NCBI GenBank assembly: GCA_026415715.1
Contig: JAOAGO010000003.1
Location: forward strand, 24,204-88,203
Origin: Chitinophagaceae bacterium
Lineage (GTDB): Bacteria; Bacteroidota; Bacteroidia; Chitinophagales; Chitinophagaceae
Reading direction: 5' to 3'
DNA length: 64,000 nt
This document shows, in pieces, positions 1,560 to 59,559 of the stretch. The position numbers were made by a program, and so were the translations under genes. A model generated the notes under the pieces. That model saw only the letters and a list, made by a program, of their open reading frames with translations, was not told where the DNA came from and did not search any database. Position 1 is the first letter of the stretch. Each line of letters opens with the position of its first letter.

Positions 1560-2219
1560 TCAGACGTTGAGGCAAACGGATTTTAAAGCAGAGATGGTCT
1601 TTATTGGATCGGGCGAACGAAATACCGTATTACCGGCTACCAGCACATCGGCGCCGGCCGAAACAATTTCGGCCGCATTTTCTAACGTCACGCCGCCATC
1701 CACTTCTATCAGCACATTCAGCATGCGTTCGGCAACCATTTGGCGAAGCTGTCTTATTTTATGCAGTGTATGCGGTATGAATTGCTGCCCCCCGAAACCG
1801 GGATTTACACCCATTAAGCAAACCAGGTCTATTTCGTTCAAAATTTCCTGAATGGCTGATAAAGGCGTGTGCGGATTTACGGCCACTCCGGCCTTCATGC
1901 CAAGATTTTTAATTTGTTGAATGTTGCGGTGCAGATGCCGGCAGGCTTCCACATGAACCGTAAGTATATCGGCACCGGCCTGATGAAACATTTCGGCATA
2001 GCGCTCCGGCTCTTCTATCATCAAATGCACATCGCATGTTTTTGAAGTAGCCTTGCGAAAAAAAGCCACCAGCATCGGGCCAAAGCTGATGTTCGGCACA
2101 AAGCGCCCGTCCATCACATCCAAATGATACCAGTCGGCTTCACTTTTGTTCAGCATCCGGCACTCGGCTTCCAGATTCAGAAAGTTGGCTGATAACAAAG
2201 ATGGGGCTACAATTGGCAT
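1560..2219 (-). CDS. rpe: Ribulose-phosphate 3-epimerase
   Basis: 219 aa. MPIVAPSLLSANF...HLDVMDGRFVPN...GVNPGFGGQQF...EVDGG are canonical Rpe motifs. Confidence 0.92.
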   Translation of the reverse strand: MPIVAPSLLSANFLNLEAECRMLNKSEADWYHLDVMDGRFVPNISFGPMLVAFFRKATSKTCDVHLMIEEPERYAEMFHQAGADILTVHVEACRHLHRNIQQIKNLGMKAGVAVNPHTPLSAIQEILNEIDLVCLMGVNPGFGGQQFIPHTLHKIRQLRQMVAERMLNVLIEVDGGVTLENAAEIVSAGADVLVAGNTVFRSPDPIKTISALKSVCLNV

Positions 2220-4489: not shown

Positions 4490-4697
4490 TTGGGGCTGTC
4501 ATCGTCCCGCCTGCGGCGGGCAAGTCCGCTGTTCATCGCCGGTCCGGTGTCCTTCGGGCTGTCGGTGCTCACACCCCCGCGCAAGGCTGAACAACGTTCG
4601 CACCCTGCCAATCGGGCAGGCCCTTCGGCCACCGCAGCCCTTCACCTCTCAGCTCGCTGTTCATCTTTTATTCCTCGCCCGCAAAACCAACCGCTAC
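4490..4697 (+). repeat. GC-rich intergenic element, copy A
   Basis: Head GGGGCTGTCATCG at 4492-4504, hairpin CCCGCC-TGC-GGCGGG at 4506-4520, hairpin CCTGCC-AATCG-GGCAGG at 4604-4620, and GCAGCCCTTCACC at 4634-4646. The same block order occurs at 58605-58850 and, inverted, at 56055-56250. Confidence 0.7.
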
Positions 4698-4788
4698 TAA
4701 AAAATTGAATACCCTTAACGTGATTTTACCATAACCAAATCCCCTACTTTTGCTGCAATACCAAAAAATTCTGCTATTTCCGAATACC

Positions 4789-29531: not shown

Positions 29532-30805
29532 TACGGATTCTCCATTATAATAAACTGCCAAAAAAAGCGGATATGTTCCGACGCCCGGTTTCCGATCTTT
29601 CTAAAATTAAAAAAATTGTCCAACAAATTTTAAACGATGTAAAAAAAGAGGGAGACAAAGCTTTAATGAAATATGCCAAGAAATTTGAGGGCGCTGCGCC
29701 GGACCGCCTGGTGGTTTCGCCTTATGAAATCCGCTTATCATCAAATCATCTGTCACCGGCACTGAAAAAAGCAATTAAAGAGGCTTATGCGAATATATAC
29801 ACATATCATGCACATCAAAAAAATAAAACAGAAATCATACAAACACAGCCGGGAATACGGTGTTGGCAAGCCGTAACTCCCGTTGAAAAAGTGGGCCTTT
29901 ACATTCCGGGTGGAACGGCGCCTCTTTTTTCAACGGTTTTAATGTTGGGCATACCGGCCAAAATTGCGGGATGTAAAGAGATTATACTTTGTAGTCCCGG
30001 GAATCATGCCGGAGACATTCATCCGGCAATTTTATACAGCGCTTCACTATGTGGCATAAAAAAAATTTTCAGGGTTGGCGGAGCGCAGGCAATAGCCGCC
30101 ATGGCCTATGGTACAACTTCCGTTCCGGCAGTATATAAAATTTTCGGACCCGGCAATCCTTATGTCACGGCAGCTAAAATGCTTGTACAGCAGGAAGGGG
30201 TAGCAATTGATATGCCCGCAGGGCCTTCCGAAATACTCATTATTGCCGATGACAGCGCCCCGCCGGATTATATCGCCGCCGACTTACTGGCCCAGGCCGA
30301 ACACGGACCGGATTCGCAGGTTCTATTAATTACTCCTGATTTTACGTGGGCCCGGAAAGTAGCAGAAGAAGTTAAACGACAACTTGAAGATTTGCCACGA
30401 AAAAAAATTGCCGCCGAAGCATTAAAAAACAGTTGTATTCTTATCGTACGCGATATGATGCAAGCCCTTGATTTGTCAAACCGTTACGCCCCCGAACATC
30501 TGATGCTTTGCTGCCGGAATTACTCCCGACTAATCAAAAAAATAGCTAATGCGGGTTCTGTTTTTCTGGGAAAGTATTCCCCCGAGAGCGCCGGAGATTA
30601 TGCCTCGGGCACAAACCACACACTCCCCACCGGCGGATATGCCAGAGCCTTTTCGGGAGTTTCGCTGGATAGCTTTCAGAAAAAAATAAATTTTCAGCAG
30701 TTGAGCCGTAAGGGTCTGTTGCAAATTGCAAATACCGTAATGACCATGGCCGAAACCGAACAACTCGAAGCGCATAAAAGATCTGTTTCCATCCGGTTAA
30801 AGTAA
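29528..30805 (+). CDS. hisD: Histidinol dehydrogenase
   Basis: 425 aa. ATGA overlap with hisG. QAEHGPDSQ and GDY..GTNHTLPT motifs. Confidence 0.92.
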   Translation: MIRILHYNKLPKKADMFRRPVSDLSKIKKIVQQILNDVKKEGDKALMKYAKKFEGAAPDRLVVSPYEIRLSSNHLSPALKKAIKEAYANIYTYHAHQKNKTEIIQTQPGIRCWQAVTPVEKVGLYIPGGTAPLFSTVLMLGIPAKIAGCKEIILCSPGNHAGDIHPAILYSASLCGIKKIFRVGGAQAIAAMAYGTTSVPAVYKIFGPGNPYVTAAKMLVQQEGVAIDMPAGPSEILIIADDSAPPDYIAADLLAQAEHGPDSQVLLITPDFTWARKVAEEVKRQLEDLPRKKIAAEALKNSCILIVRDMMQALDLSNRYAPEHLMLCCRNYSRLIKKIANAGSVFLGKYSPESAGDYASGTNHTLPTGGYARAFSGVSLDSFQKKINFQQLSRKGLLQIANTVMTMAETEQLEAHKRSVSIRLK

Positions 30806-55983: not shown

Positions 55984-56054
55984 AATGCTAATATATGAAG
56001 TAACTGAAAATGTAACAAGCACCTTATGCCGCAAGGCGTCTTTTTTTGTAACTT

Positions 56055-56250
56055 CGCCGCGCCGCCGGGTAAAAGGCAGGGCCGGATGAAAAAAAGCCCG
56101 GAAGCGTGATGCCGGCGAAGGGCTGCGCCGACCGGAAGGCGAACGAAGTGAGGCCGGTCAGCCTGCGGCTGACCGGCCGAAGCGACAGCGAAGCCTGCAG
56201 GGCGGCGAACCAAAGCTGAACAGCAAACCGGAACGATGACAGCCCCAAAT
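56055..56250 (-). repeat. GC-rich intergenic element, copy C (inverted)
   Basis: The reverse complement begins TTGGGGCTGTCATCG (56235-56249). It contains hairpin CCGGTCAGC-CTGCG-GCTGACCGG (56155-56177) and the GCAGCCCTTCGCC block (56125-56137 on the opposite strand). Confidence 0.7.
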
Positions 56251-56288: not shown

Positions 56289-58556
56289 ATGTTGTTTGAC
56301 CTGGATGTAATTCAAAAAGTATATGCTTCGCTGCCCGAAAAAGTGAATGCTGCCAGACGATTGCTGGGCAGACCCATGACGCTGAGCGAAAAAATTTTAT
56401 ACAGCCATCTTTCGGGTGCGCTGCCCGAAAAGCCTTATGAGCGGGGAAAAGATTATGTGGACTTTGCGCCTGACCGAGTTGCGATGCAGGATGCCACTGC
56501 ACAAATGGCCCTGCTGCAGTTTATGACCTGCGGAAGAAATAAAGTGGCGGTGCCCACAACGGTGCACTGCGACCATCTGATTCAAGCTAAAGCGGGCGCC
56601 AAACAAGACCTGGCCGCCGCACTGGAAACCAACAAGGAAGTGTACGATTTTCTTTCCAGCATTTCCAACAAATACGGCATCGGATTCTGGAAACCCGGCG
56701 CCGGTATCATTCATCAGGTTATTCTGGAAAACTATGCCTTTCCCGGCGGCATGATGATTGGCACCGACAGCCATACTCCAAACGCCGGCGGACTGGGAAT
56801 GATTGCCATTGGCGTGGGGGGCGCCGATGCCGTGGATGTAATGGCCGGACTGCCCTGGGAACTGAAAATGCCGAAGCTGATTGGCGTAAAACTGACCGGA
56901 CGACTGAACGGCTGGGCATCGCCGAAAGACGTGATTTTGTGGGTGGCCGGACAACTGACGGTAAAAGGCGGCACCGGAGCCATTGTGGAATATTTCGGTC
57001 CGGGCGCAGACAGCATCAGCGCTACCGGCAAGGGCACCATTTGCAACATGGGCGCCGAAATTGGCGCTACCTGCTCCATTTTTGCCTACGACGAAAAAAT
57101 GAGCGCCTACCTGAAAGCTACCGGCCGTGAAGAAGTGGCTGCCCTGGCCGACGCCATTAAAGAGCACCTGCGTCCTGACGACGATGTGTATGCCCATCCC
57201 GAAAAATATTACGACCAACTGCTGGAACTGAACCTGGATGAACTGGAGCCTTATGTAAACGGCCCCTTTACGCCCGACCTGGCTACGCCGATTTCCAAAC
57301 TGAAAGAGGCCGTAGAAAAAAACGGCTGGCCTCCGCGCCTGGAAGTGGCCCTGATCGGAAGCTGTACCAACTCGTCATACGAAGATATCAGCCGCAGCGC
57401 TTCCATTGTAAAAGATGCGCTGGAAAAAGGGCTGAAAGCGCAATCGGAATTTACCATTACCCCCGGCAGCGAACAGGTGCGCTACACGATAGAGCGTGAC
57501 GGATTTATTAAACTGTTTGAAGAAGCCGGCGGGGTGGTGCTGGCTAATGCCTGCGGCCCCTGCATAGGCCAATGGGCCAGGCATATAGACGACCCGAACC
57601 GCAAAAACACCATCATCACTTCATTTAACCGAAACTTTGCCAAGCGCAACGACGGGCTGGCTTCAACGCATGCTTTCGTAGCCTCGCCCGAAATAGTTAC
57701 CGCCATGGCGCTGGCGGGGACCATAGCGTTTAATCCGCTGAAAGATAAAATTAAAAACAGCCGGGGCGAAGAGGTGATGCTGAAAGAACCTCAGGGGTAT
57801 GAACTGCCGCCCAAAGGTTTTGCGGTGGAAGACCCGGGCTATCAGCCGCCCGCCGAAGACGGCAGCAACATAGAAGTCATAGTACGGCCCGACAGCGAAC
57901 GCCTGCAACTGCTGCAACCCTTTCCCGCCTGGGAAGGCACTGACCTGAAAGGACTGAAACTGCTGATTAAAGTAAAAGGCAAATGCACCACCGACCATAT
58001 CAGTATGGCAGGCCCCTGGCTGAAATACCGCGGCCATCTGGACAATATCAGCAACAACCTGCTCATCGGCGCCGTGAATTATTTTAACGACAAAACCAAT
58101 CTGGTAAAAAATCAGCTTAGCGGCAACTATGGTCCCGTGCCTGAAACCCAACGGGCTTACAAGGCCGCCGGCATTGGCACCGTGGTGGTAGGCGACGAAA
58201 ACTACGGCGAAGGGTCATCCCGCGAACATGCCGCCATGGAGCCCCGCCATCTGGGCGTAAGAGCCATACTGGTAAAAAGTTTTGCCCGCATTCACGAAAC
58301 CAACCTGAAAAAACAAGGTATGCTGGCGCTCACCTTTGCCAACAAAGACGACTACGACAAAGTGCAGGAAGACGACACAATAGACATTCTGGGGCTTACG
58401 GAATTTGCACCCGGCCGCCCGCTCACCATCGTACTGCATCACAGCGACGGAAGCCGCGACGAAATTCCTGCACTGCACTCGTACAATGAGCAACAAATTG
58501 AGTGGTTCAAAGCCGGCAGCGCCCTCAATCTTATCCGCAAACAGATAAGCGGATAA
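56289..58556 (+). CDS. acnA: Aconitate hydratase (monomeric ~755-aa type)
   Basis: Aconitase family motifs include Fe-S ligand contexts IGSCTNSS and [10 protein letters not shown], plus the C-terminal swivel domain. It is visibly richer in G+C and C-ending codons than neighbouring genes. Confidence 0.93.
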
Positions 58557-58604: not shown

Positions 58605-58850
58605 GAGGGGCTGTCATCGGCCCGCCTCCGGCCCGCCTGCGGCCCGCCTGCGGCGGGCAGGTTCTCTGCTCAGCTGCAGTTCCGGCTGCTTCGGGCTTCG
58701 GTACGCCTGCGGCGTACTACCCCTCCGCATCCGGCAGCCTTTCGGCGATAGCAATTCTTATCAACCTCACCCCCCTGCCCCCTCTCCTTTAGTAGAGGGG
58801 AGAACGTGAAATTATTTATTAAAAGAAAATGATTTTTAAGGGGGTGAGGT
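58605..58850 (+). repeat. GC-rich intergenic element, copy D
   Basis: Head GGGGCTGTCATCG at 58607-58619, an 11-nt unit CCCGCCTSCGG x3 at 58621-58653, GCAGCCTTTCGGC at 58734-58746, and a tail with ACCTCACCCCC (58764-58774) / GGGGGTGAGGT (58840-58850) enclosing hairpin CCCCTCT/AGAGGGG (58779-58800). Confidence 0.7.
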
Positions 58851-58922: not shown

Positions 58923-59559
58923 CTAATAAGCTTTTAAATTCCGGGCTTTAATCTTGGCTATCTCCCCCTCCTGATGCAACACCCCTATGCCCCGCTCTAC
59001 CGCCATCTCCTCCACCTCCGACGGAATGGACATCCCCCCTATGGCCAAATACACTTTATGACGCTTGTACTGTGGAAACAGTGCTCGAAACGTTTTTTAA
59101 CTTCCTCGTGTATAGTTCGGTAATGTCTTTCGGGTGTGCTTTATGCTTTATCTCAATAAGCGCCACACTGTCGCCGTTTACCAGCAACAGGTCAAACTCC
59201 CCTGCCAGCTTGCCCGACTTCTTATACACACGCCGTAATACTTCATCAAATTTAATACCTGCCAACTCAGGCTTTTTCTTAAACGTATTATAAAAAAGCT
59301 CCTCCGCCGTTTGCCCCAAGTTTATTCCTATATTGCTGAGAATCTTAGCGGTTTCTTTCAGCTTCGCATCTGTCTTGGAAAACTGTGCATCTGTCTTGGC
59401 TAATTGCGCATCCGTCTTGGGTAGTTTCGCATTAGTCTTGGCTAATTGTGCATCAATCCGCTCCTGTGCCGCACGCAATTTCGCTATCTGCGCATCGGTT
59501 TTTAGCTGGTTTTCCGACACCTTTTTTAAAATAGCGTGTATTTCTTCAAATCCTTTCAT
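58923..59559 (-). pseudogene. Frameshifted coiled-coil + PD-(D/E)XK-like nuclease-fold gene
   Basis: The N-terminal ORF (59056-59559) has heptad repeats and a D...E-x-K pattern (FDLLLVNGDSVALIEIKHK). After the A6 run (complement of T6 at 59093-59098), the +1 frame continues KTFRALFPQYKRHKVYLAIGGMSIPSEVEEMAVERGIGVLHQEGEIAKIKARNLKAY to the stop at 58923-58925. Confidence 0.6.
59361..59465 (-). repeat. 21-nt tandem repeat (x4-5) inside the coiled-coil coding region
   Basis: GCATCTGTCTTGG recurs at 59366, 59387, 59408 (GCATCCGTCTTGG) and 59429 (GCATTAGTCTTGG), with a degenerate copy at 59450. It encodes (A)KTDAQL(A)-type heptads. Confidence 0.8.

Follow-up and report, generated by a model that had tools for sequence, protein, structure and literature searches.

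What kind of element are the three short GC-rich segments that lie between genes in a 64,000-nucleotide (nt) stretch of contig JAOAGO010000003.1 (hereafter the window) from a Chitinophagaceae bacterium? A preliminary description of these segments, which we call copies A, B and C, noted that they share a 13-mer, GGGGCTGTCATCG, assigned them to no named family and proposed either a mobile DNA element or a structured RNA. The analysis presented here identifies them as a divergent, extended and previously undescribed branch of Flavo-1 (RF01705), and on balance we favour the view that they represent a dispersed intergenic element of this branch, about 105-190 nt long, that works as a folded single strand, perhaps of RNA.

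The 13-mer occurs exactly at 4492-4504 (plus strand), 58607-58619 (plus strand) and 56234-56246 (minus strand) and nowhere else in the window, and the three 100-nt segments with the highest GC content are the copies themselves (0.70, 0.73 and 0.76, against a mean of 0.43 with a standard deviation of 0.076). Three GC-rich stretches with a common 'head' are thus indeed present, as first described, and only the position of the third head, given as 56235-56247, had to be moved by one base. When up to two mismatches were allowed, four sites were found, namely the three exact ones and a 1-mismatch site within an open reading frame (ORF; 30247-30259), compared with a mean of 0.88 matches in dinucleotide shuffles, none of which (0/100) reached four. 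All the shorter blocks that had been listed were also recovered: the hairpin CCCGCCTGCGGCGGG at 4506-4520 in copy A and 58643-58657 in copy C, exactly as stated; GCTGTTCA at 4528-4535 in copy A and 56217-56224 (minus strand) in copy B; CTTCGGGCT at 4552-4560 in copy A and 58689-58697 in copy C; GCAGCCCTTCACC at 4634-4646 in copy A, with the version GCAGCCTTTCGGC at 58734-58746 in copy C; and the hairpins at 4604-4620 and 56155-56177. Two details were corrected, since the corresponding tail block of copy B lies at 56114-56126 (minus strand) and not at 56125-56137, and since copy C carries TCTGCTCA in place of GCTGCTCA. The copies are 65-85% alike, and their head-to-tail distances range from 92 to 176 nt with differences that are not multiples of three, indicating that they are old, non-coding paralogues of one repeat family without a conserved reading frame, as had been proposed.

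The family also extends to related genomes, where the preliminary description had proposed to look for it. Eight copies were found beyond the window, in loci that we refer to as L095, L125, L126, L128, L129, L141 (two copies, L141a and L141b) and L144, bringing the sample to 11; these outside copies come from three or four Chitinophagaceae genomes (Terrimonas-like). The pattern used to scan a genome collection, GGGGCTGTCATCGNNCCG, has 16 specified bases and is too short to be selective, and of the at least 118 matches listed almost all were fortuitous and lay in coding DNA of GC-rich genomes, the copy in L095 (Chitinophagaceae bacterium UBA4857) being the only real one. A scan of metagenomes gave four real copies (L125, L126, L128 and L129), all in the whole-genome shotgun set PJTT01, and two chance matches; its pattern required TTT before the head, so that this sample is biased towards intact heads. 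Viral contigs scanned by pattern gave chance matches only. The last three copies (two in L141 and one in L144) were reached by walking out from obg, which is next to the copy in L095, and from rpoN. Since their heads are diverged (GGGGCTGTCAGC.. and GGGGCTTTCATC..), pattern searches with the exact head undercount the family. PJTT01 and L141/L142 may be one organism, with six known copies across both.

A profile hidden Markov model (HMM) built from five outside copies only retrieved from the window exactly copies C (E = 1.1e-8), A (4.8e-6) and B (7.3e-6), with the next match at E = 8.3, showing that the three copies are not a product of chance. When the head was removed from this profile, copy C was still found at E = 2.6e-7 and copy A at 0.066, and copy B was not found. 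A ten-copy profile run over 346 kb (the window and the fetched loci) gave nothing beyond the known copies, and a literature search for the 13-mer as DNA or RNA gave nothing. The element has a GC content of 60-75%, in carrier genomes of 38-43%.

The link to a known family came from the outside copies. Flavo-1 was described in 2010 as a multi-copy, intergenic motif of Bacteroidota of unknown function (Weinberg et al. 2010, PMC2864571). Rfam has listed it since that year, and its hundreds of copies are still without an assigned function. At Rfam gathering thresholds, only two tRNAs were detected in the whole window, and scans by E-value, both of the copies and of the entire window, gave nothing of relevance. 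In searches with all 4227 families, L126 matched Flavo-1 at 33.1 bits (E = 0.002, 40-kb search) and L141a matched it at 39.8 bits (E = 1.7e-5, 21-kb search), both below the gathering threshold of 42 bits for this family, so that the family, which the preliminary description had not recognised as a named one, does have a name. Both matches are on the strand opposite to the one that had been read before, which means that the former 'head' is the 3' tail of a Flavo-1-type fold; likewise, the 'CTTCGG' blocks of the preliminary description are the reverse complement of the GAAGC/CGAAG loop sequences of Flavo-1. In an alignment with 12 published Flavo-1 sequences, L126 and L141a have ..AGC-CCnGAUUGnAGCGG..GAUAnAGCGGAnAGCnGGAA in common with them. 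A covariance model, R1, was seeded with these same two copies and 12 published sequences (PMC2864571 supplement); it found L125, a copy outside its seed, at 18.2 bits (E = 0.016), and its best match in the window was the core of copy C (58675-58743, minus strand; 13.7 bits, E about 0.09). A canonical-type Flavo-1, GGGAUAAAAGCGG...UAUAGCGGUUAGCCCGACC, is present in L129 at 2065-2168 (plus strand), with 35.9 bits for the Rfam model (threshold 42) and 21.4 bits for R1, and since this site shares its genome set with four members of the new branch, the two forms coexist.

The Flavo-1 sequence boxes GAU(U), (G)AGCGG, (U)AGCGGA and AAGCnGGAA are present in L126 and L141a, which carry GAUUGCAGCGG and UAUAGCGGAAAGCGGGAA; copy C retains GGAUG and GCAGCCGGAAC; and after the basal helix of copies A and B only ..GGAC and ..CGAAC remain. 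The closest published subtype is 'UAGCC-CCGAUU...AGCGGGAA'. Altogether, we consider it very probable that the element is a relative of Flavo-1; it descends from Flavo-1 itself or from a common ancestor.

We then examined the fold in an alignment of eight copies in Flavo-1 orientation (A2), which was made with MAFFT without any structure supplied; a ten-sequence MAFFT alignment (A3) was set aside for pair counts because it misplaces copy A onto an internal pseudo-core. On A2, RNAalifold predicted five helices unaided (P0, P1, P2, P3 and a small tail helix). P0, which pairs GGCUG with CAGCC (G-C, G-C, C-G, U-A and G-C), is invariant in 8/8 copies and recovers the closing stem that had been suggested between (G)GGCTG and CAGCC(C). 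P1, of 4 bp (A2 columns 20-23 with 155-158), is Watson-Crick in all eight copies and occurs in five sequence versions, namely CCCG/CGGG, CCGG/CCGG and CACC/GGUG, with CGCC/GGCG in copy B and CGGU/ACCG in copy A. The position above this basal helix is A/G in copy C and four outside copies and a G-C pair in A, B and L128. P2 and P3 are of 3 bp each; P2 is GCC/GGA with one G.A in copy A, ACC/GGG with one A.G in copy B and UGC/GCA in copy C, and includes two U.G pairs in L128, and P3 is GGG/CCC, AGG/CCU and GGG/CCC in A, B and C, respectively. P2 and P3 are separated by a symmetric 3x3 loop of GNA/GNA form, which reads GAA/GAA in copy A, GGA/GCA in copy B and GGA/GAA in copy C. The tail helix, CUG/CGG, has a U.G pair in six copies that is C-G in two.

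Pair counting on A2 showed that 87.5% of cells were paired and that six pairs had changed on both sides. The resulting covariation score was 0.332, compared with 0.100 in column shuffles (0/500 reached it), and it fell to 0.03-0.13 when partners were slid by one to three columns. The earlier idea of a structured element is therefore borne out in general terms by covarying helices, and the fold is probably under selection. In 6/8 copies the folding energy is somewhat lower on the strand that matches the Rfam model. The features of the three window copies, with helix coordinates taken from A2, are given here one per line.

4492-4649, minus strand (the strand that aligns with Flavo-1; previously read as plus): copy A, whole element; outside-copy HMM E = 4.8e-6, ten-copy HMM E = 2.1e-19
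4492-4509, minus strand: conserved tail of copy A (the former 'head'), ...CGGGACGATGACAGCCCC, including the P0 3' arm CAGCC at 4494-4498
4635-4639, minus strand: P0 5' arm GGCTG of copy A, pairing with 4494-4498
4621-4634, minus strand: core 5' strand of copy A (P1 CGGT, G, P2 GCC, loop GAA, P3 GGG), pairing with 4545-4558
4545-4558, minus strand: core 3' strand of copy A (P3 CCC, loop GAA, P2 GGA, C, P1 ACCG)
4506-4520, minus strand: perfect hairpin CCCGCC-TGC-GGCGGG of copy A, inserted in the tail hairpin; a tandemly repeated unit in copy C
4604-4620, minus strand: distal hairpin CCTGCC-AATCG-GGCAGG of copy A, resembling a second 5'-core segment (CCCGATTGGCAGGG)
56111-56246, plus strand (Flavo-1-type strand): copy B, whole element; outside-copy HMM E = 7.3e-6, ten-copy HMM E = 3.1e-17
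56229-56246, plus strand: conserved tail of copy B, CGGAACGATGACAGCCCC, with the P0 3' arm CAGCC at 56240-56244
56121-56139, plus strand: P0 5' arm GGCTG (56121-56125) and core 5' strand of copy B (P1 CGCC, G, P2 ACC, loop GGA, P3 AGG)
56194-56207, plus strand: core 3' strand of copy B (P3 CCT, loop GCA, P2 GGG, C, P1 GGCG)
56152-56178, plus strand: distal perfect 12-bp hairpin of copy B, GGCCGGTCAGCC-TGC-GGCTGACCGGCC
58607-58751, minus strand (Flavo-1-type strand): copy C, whole element; outside-copy HMM E = 1.1e-8, with a head-to-tail alignment
58607-58624, minus strand: conserved tail of copy C, CGGGCCGATGACAGCCCC, with the P0 3' arm CAGCC at 58609-58613
58721-58739, minus strand: P0 5' arm GGCTG (58735-58739) and core 5' strand of copy C (P1 CCGG, A, P2 TGC, loop GGA, P3 GGG)
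58682-58695, minus strand: core 3' strand of copy C (P3 CCC, loop GAA, P2 GCA, G, P1 CCGG)
58620-58660, minus strand: three tandem units of about 11 nt (GCAGGCGGGCC on the minus strand) that expand the tail hairpin of copy C and include the hairpin 58643-58657
58701-58717, minus strand: distal hairpin GTACGCC-TGC-GGCGTAC of copy C

The hairpin of copy A at 4506-4520 and the tandem 11-mers of copy C at 58620-58660 are both insertions in the loop of the tail hairpin; with a single unit in copy A and three units of GCAGGCGGGCC in copy C, this looks like local slippage that expanded the hairpin.

Compared with Flavo-1, the architecture is similar from the base upwards. In both, a basal helix combines an invariant outer C-G with covarying inner pairs (C10-G115 in the published alignment), and above it come a short helix (UU/AA, UG/CA and others), the symmetric 3x3 loop of GNA/GNA form (GaA/GgA in Flavo-1), a short G-C helix and then a distal hairpin of variable length. 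The A/G position that Flavo-1 has just above the basal helix is present in part of the copies only, copy C included. Both are also restricted to Bacteroidota, multi-copy, intergenic and of unknown function. The window copies differ in that they largely lack the AGCGG boxes, in that P2 and P3 are each one pair longer and in that the A.G position is a G-C pair in copies A and B. Moreover, the 5' UAGCC box of Flavo-1 is replaced by GGCUG, which pairs with a CAGCC located about 45 nt past the Flavo-1 3' end, so that the two features that set this branch apart, GGCUG and the CAGCC-bearing tail, are predicted to pair with each other. Neither this closing helix nor the tail (...GAAC..CGGGACGAUGACAGCCCC) was found in the portion of the 2010 supplementary files that was searched (first 200 of 438; PMC2864571). 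Finally, this branch is GC-rich and occurs in Chitinophagaceae rather than in Flavobacteriia; the window, itself from a Chitinophagaceae genome, holds three copies per 64 kb, and the distal parts differ in every copy.

These observations suggest a model in which the element acts as a folded single strand. The invariant closing helix GGCUG/CAGCC would enclose a Flavo-1-type imperfect hairpin and the conserved tail, the hairpin consisting, in order, of the 4-bp basal helix, an A.G or G-C, a 3-bp helix, the 3x3 GNA/GNA loop, another 3-bp helix and a GC-rich distal hairpin, and the tail of about 45 nt, ending in ...CGGGACGAUGACAGCCCC, holding a small hairpin that appears to tolerate insertions. 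New copies may occasionally be inserted or duplicated into intergenic DNA and would then be kept by selection on the fold. The folded form would most likely be RNA, probably of the Rfam strand, acting as a small non-coding RNA or as a protein-binding RNA module, with the invariant tail as a putative recognition site for a partner that may be a protein or a complementary RNA. As to RNA itself, we regard the chances of an RNA and of a DNA active form as evenly balanced. RNA of the Flavo-1 strand is favoured by wobble pairs that exist on that strand only, by its purine-rich internal loops and by the one-sided change from U.G to C-G in the tail helix.

Several results weigh against this model or against parts of it. 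None of the three window copies matches the Rfam Flavo-1 model, even at E <= 10, and R1 retrieves copy C only, marginally; since neither model finds A or B, the tie of these two copies to Flavo-1 rests on the shared tail and architecture. P0 and the tail are invariant and thus provide no covariation, the folding energies of whole elements compared with shuffles are mixed (z from +0.5 to -3.8) and of no use as evidence, and the family sample comprises only 11 copies. In 4/4 independent co-directional contexts (A, L126, L129 and L141b/L144), the Rfam strand runs antisense to the genes on both sides. Neither strand of the element shows an apparent promoter or terminator, and the -7 box of Bacteroidota promoters, TAnnTTTG, is intact upstream of copy A only. 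Flavo-1 hits in Flavobacterium psychrophilum are sense, antisense or outside transcribed regions (PMC9723704), and since they ignore transcript orientation, an element that acts at the DNA level fits them as well as an RNA does.

The closest relatives of the aconitase at 56289-58556, for which an exact look-up gave no entry, come from uncultured Chitinophagaceae and are 86-88% identical in protein. In the three nearest relatives of the window genome, the PspC-aconitase spacer is about 200 bp without the element and nothing like copy C follows aconitase; no family member was found by profile or by R1 in the nearest-relative loci or in those of the Terrimonas rubra group. At the B/C locus and at the rpoN site, the element is thus missing in relatives at 86-88% protein identity. 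At the rpoN site, relatives with 86-87% rpoN identity have their next gene starting about 40 nt past rpoN, which indicates that the element is absent there. L141 and L144, with 93% identity between their rpoN proteins, both have a copy at the same place 3' of rpoN, and since a block is shared in the upstream spacer, these two copies are orthologous. At the nucleotide level the element is 81% identical between the two, the 3' part of the rpoN coding sequence 79%, the spacer upstream of the copy 60% and the DNA downstream of it 46%. P1 at this site is CCCG/CGGG in one genome and CCGG/CCGG in the other, and this compensatory change in a copy that was kept while its flanks decayed argues for selection on the fold in place, although gene conversion by a paralogue could also yield such a change between orthologues. 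Copies have thus been gained or lost between genera, and at least one, once present, has been held by selection on sequence and pairing. At another locus, about 150 nt upstream of obg, different subtypes are found in L095 (about 5042) and in L141 (about 9855), with Obg proteins that are 96% identical; since the genes beyond these elements are unrelated, the element marks a synteny break there.

The main rival to a folded RNA is a non-autonomous DNA repeat of the repetitive extragenic palindromic (REP) or miniature inverted-repeat transposable element (MITE) type, whose hairpin and tail would be recognised on single-stranded DNA by a trans-acting transposase (e.g. HUH/Y1), the covariation reflecting a past need for mobilisation rather than a function in place. 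We consider this explanation possible, if less probable than the one that we favour: it accounts for the patchiness, the unrelated neighbours and the internal duplications, and not for the orthologous conservation. That the element moves at all is suggested solely by its patchy presence. In its favour, the copies are multi-copy, intergenic and beside unrelated housekeeping genes (encoding a PD40 protein, a thioesterase, PspC, aconitase, Obg, PurK, EtfA and RpoN), B and C are missing from the PspC-aconitase locus of the nearest relatives, no copy is present at the rpoN site of relatives at 86-87% identity, two subtypes lie about 150 nt 5' of obg with unrelated next genes, and some copies contain internal tandem duplications or inserted perfect palindromes. 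Published Flavo-1 sets also hold near-identical copies within one genome (PMC2864571), with hits that disregard the orientation of transcripts (PMC9723704), and Bacteroidota do encode REP-associated tyrosine transposases (RAYT) of subclass 2.6 with 'atypical' REPs (PMC6006769). A bias in orientation relative to genes is expected, too, for elements that move via the lagging-strand template, although no strict replication-strand rule applies, since copy B is oriented opposite to A and C within 64 kb. The copies are, however, old and 65-85% alike, without a recent burst, and the rpoN copy is as conserved as coding DNA between decayed flanks, which would be unexpected of a dead insertion; a purely selfish repeat is hard to reconcile with such conservation in place.

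The ends and the surroundings of the copies also fit this DNA explanation poorly, contrary to the MITE/REP-like nature that had been considered at first. MITEs are recognised by target-site duplications and by terminal inverted repeats of at least about 10 bp. The element resembles them in being non-coding, dispersed, patchy between relatives and conserved at its ends with a variable middle, but its terminal inverted repeats are of only 5-7 bp (GGGGCTG/CAGCC(C/T)(C/T)) between ends that are otherwise unlike each other; there is no flanking direct repeat, no demonstrable target-site duplication, no related full-length insertion sequence and no recent near-identical copies, and the intergenic DNA of relatives is too diverged for an empty site to be delimited. 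With REPs and their composites, bacterial interspersed mosaic elements, it shares a short, GC-rich, hairpin-forming, multi-copy and intergenic nature, hairpin arms that covary between subfamilies and copies that are at times tandem or composite. REPs are simple palindromes of 20-40 nt with the foot GTAG, CGTC or, in Bacteroidota subclass 2.6, GCTAG/GCTG (PMC6006769), and they cluster around a tnpA-REP gene, whereas this element, at 105-190 nt, combines several helices with purine internal loops and a conserved, asymmetric tail and lacks a GTAG, CGTC or GCTAG foot. In particular, the simple hairpins with a GCTAG or GCTG foot of Bacteroidota RAYTs are unlike this fold (PMC6006769), and the subclass 2.6 'atypical REPs' (Table S1, PMC6006769) were rejected as candidates, their structures bearing no resemblance to the element. 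No transposase gene, RAYT/Y1 included, was seen beside the copies, as judged from a Pfam scan of the flanking genes of the three window copies and from precomputed Pfam marks at the fetched loci.

A second rival, which we find doubtful, is that the strand read from the head is the functional one, as an mRNA-stabilising or processing structure in the 3' untranslated region of the upstream gene or the 5' untranslated region of the downstream gene, or as a small RNA whose 5' seed GGGGCUGUCAUCG would pair with start-codon regions (CGAUGACAGCCCC). It is weakly suggested by an orientation bias and by the TTTG before the head. This strand is sense in the same 4/4 independent co-directional contexts as above, which as a bias amounts to p about 0.06 only (one-sided), and all copies except C point to a downstream gene start. 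TTTG (TTG in L144) stands right before the head in 10/11 copies, with TTTGA in copy C and a full TATTTTTG box in copy A, but the search pattern behind five of the outside copies demanded TTT there, and the TA of the -7 box is missing in copies other than A. Conservation is highest in the head, which includes the complement of AUG; the head is nevertheless diverged in L141a, L141b and L144, and its only near-complement in the window, at 30247-30259, lies within an ORF, out of frame. Furthermore, the element is not followed by a terminator, its neighbouring genes lack the common function that a riboswitch-type leader would imply, and the wobble pairs and purine loops fit the other strand.

That the islands are nothing specific, be they GC-rich hairpins formed by chance, ordinary terminators of the intrinsic type or remnants of short GC-rich coding sequence, is hardly credible: GC-rich hairpins are common after genes and copy A is spanned by a 76-codon ORF, but chance would not be expected to yield three exact copies of a 13-mer, the profile made from other genomes retrieves these sites only, the helices covary, terminator-like sites are below shuffle expectation with no U-run after the element, and the frame is not conserved, with indels that are not multiples of three, so that this explanation is refuted in practice by the 13-mer, the outside profile and the covariation.

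The new branch extends Flavo-1 to Chitinophagaceae in a form that the Rfam model misses, and adds to it a further closing helix, a tail of about 20 nt whose strong conservation makes it the obvious candidate for a recognition site, and one orthologous copy kept with a compensatory change. The conservation of this copy in place sharpens the RNA-versus-DNA question for these elements, and with a model specific to the family, annotators could label GC-rich intergenic islands in these genomes. A bolder and, in our opinion, unlikely possibility is that Flavo-1-class elements, this branch included, are Bacteroidota-wide structured repeats that spread via a folded single strand bound by a partner, the tail of about 20 nt, CGGGACGAUGACAGCCCC, being its recognition or cleavage site; such a partner-recognised class would be a new kind of non-autonomous mobile element or protein-bound RNA, and not a conventional small RNA.

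Copy A lies between the genes for a PD40-repeat protein and a 4HBT thioesterase, both on the plus strand, copy B between the divergent PspC and aconitase genes, and copy C between aconitase and a convergent gene. Other candidate functions were considered and rejected. The flanking genes of the copies share no function, which argues against a riboswitch-type leader, and a cis-regulatory leader was discarded with downstream genes as unrelated as those for a thioesterase, PspC, a secreted protein, an SMI1-type protein and unknown proteins. An own promoter was discarded with the -7 box intact at copy A alone and nothing conserved upstream of the element on the other strand; a sigma-70 promoter scan was uninformative. 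No U-run or terminator-like site was found at the element ends, which excluded an intrinsic terminator together with the low terminator-like counts. A small ORF was dismissed too, as the frames that begin with ATG are not the same from copy to copy and the 'MTAP..' reading from the tail enters random sequence. Integron attC sites, retrons, ribozymes and 5' ends like those of transfer-messenger or signal recognition particle RNA were considered as well; none fits, and none is backed by an Rfam hit.

Other sequence features were noted near the copies. After copy A, at 4650-4700, GCTGTTCATCTTTTATTCCTCGCCC resembles a region inside the tail of copy B (56224-56200; 20/25 bases, E = 0.68) and may be a fragment of another copy, or chance. 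Copy B is followed at 56026-56110 by about 85 more GC-rich bases, including GGCCGGATGAAAAAAAGCCCGGAAGCG, which resembles a second, reduced Flavo-1-type core arranged in tandem and is not significant with R1. Two ORFs of 167 and 43 codons at 58923-59559 (minus strand), the second directly behind the first, neither with a Pfam match, look like one gene split by a frameshift or a stop. Sub-threshold palindromic matches to Acido-Lenti-1 (24-25 bits, threshold 37) were seen on both strands 3' of obg, at 6503-6545 in L095 and at 11314-11363 in L141. Finally, a second small palindromic repeat is present at 58757-58850, directly after copy C, and in inverted orientation at 1378-1425 (CCTCACCCCCC..CCCCCTCT..AGAGGGG.. 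with GGGGGTGAGG on the other side), its two copies matching at 86% over 37 nt.

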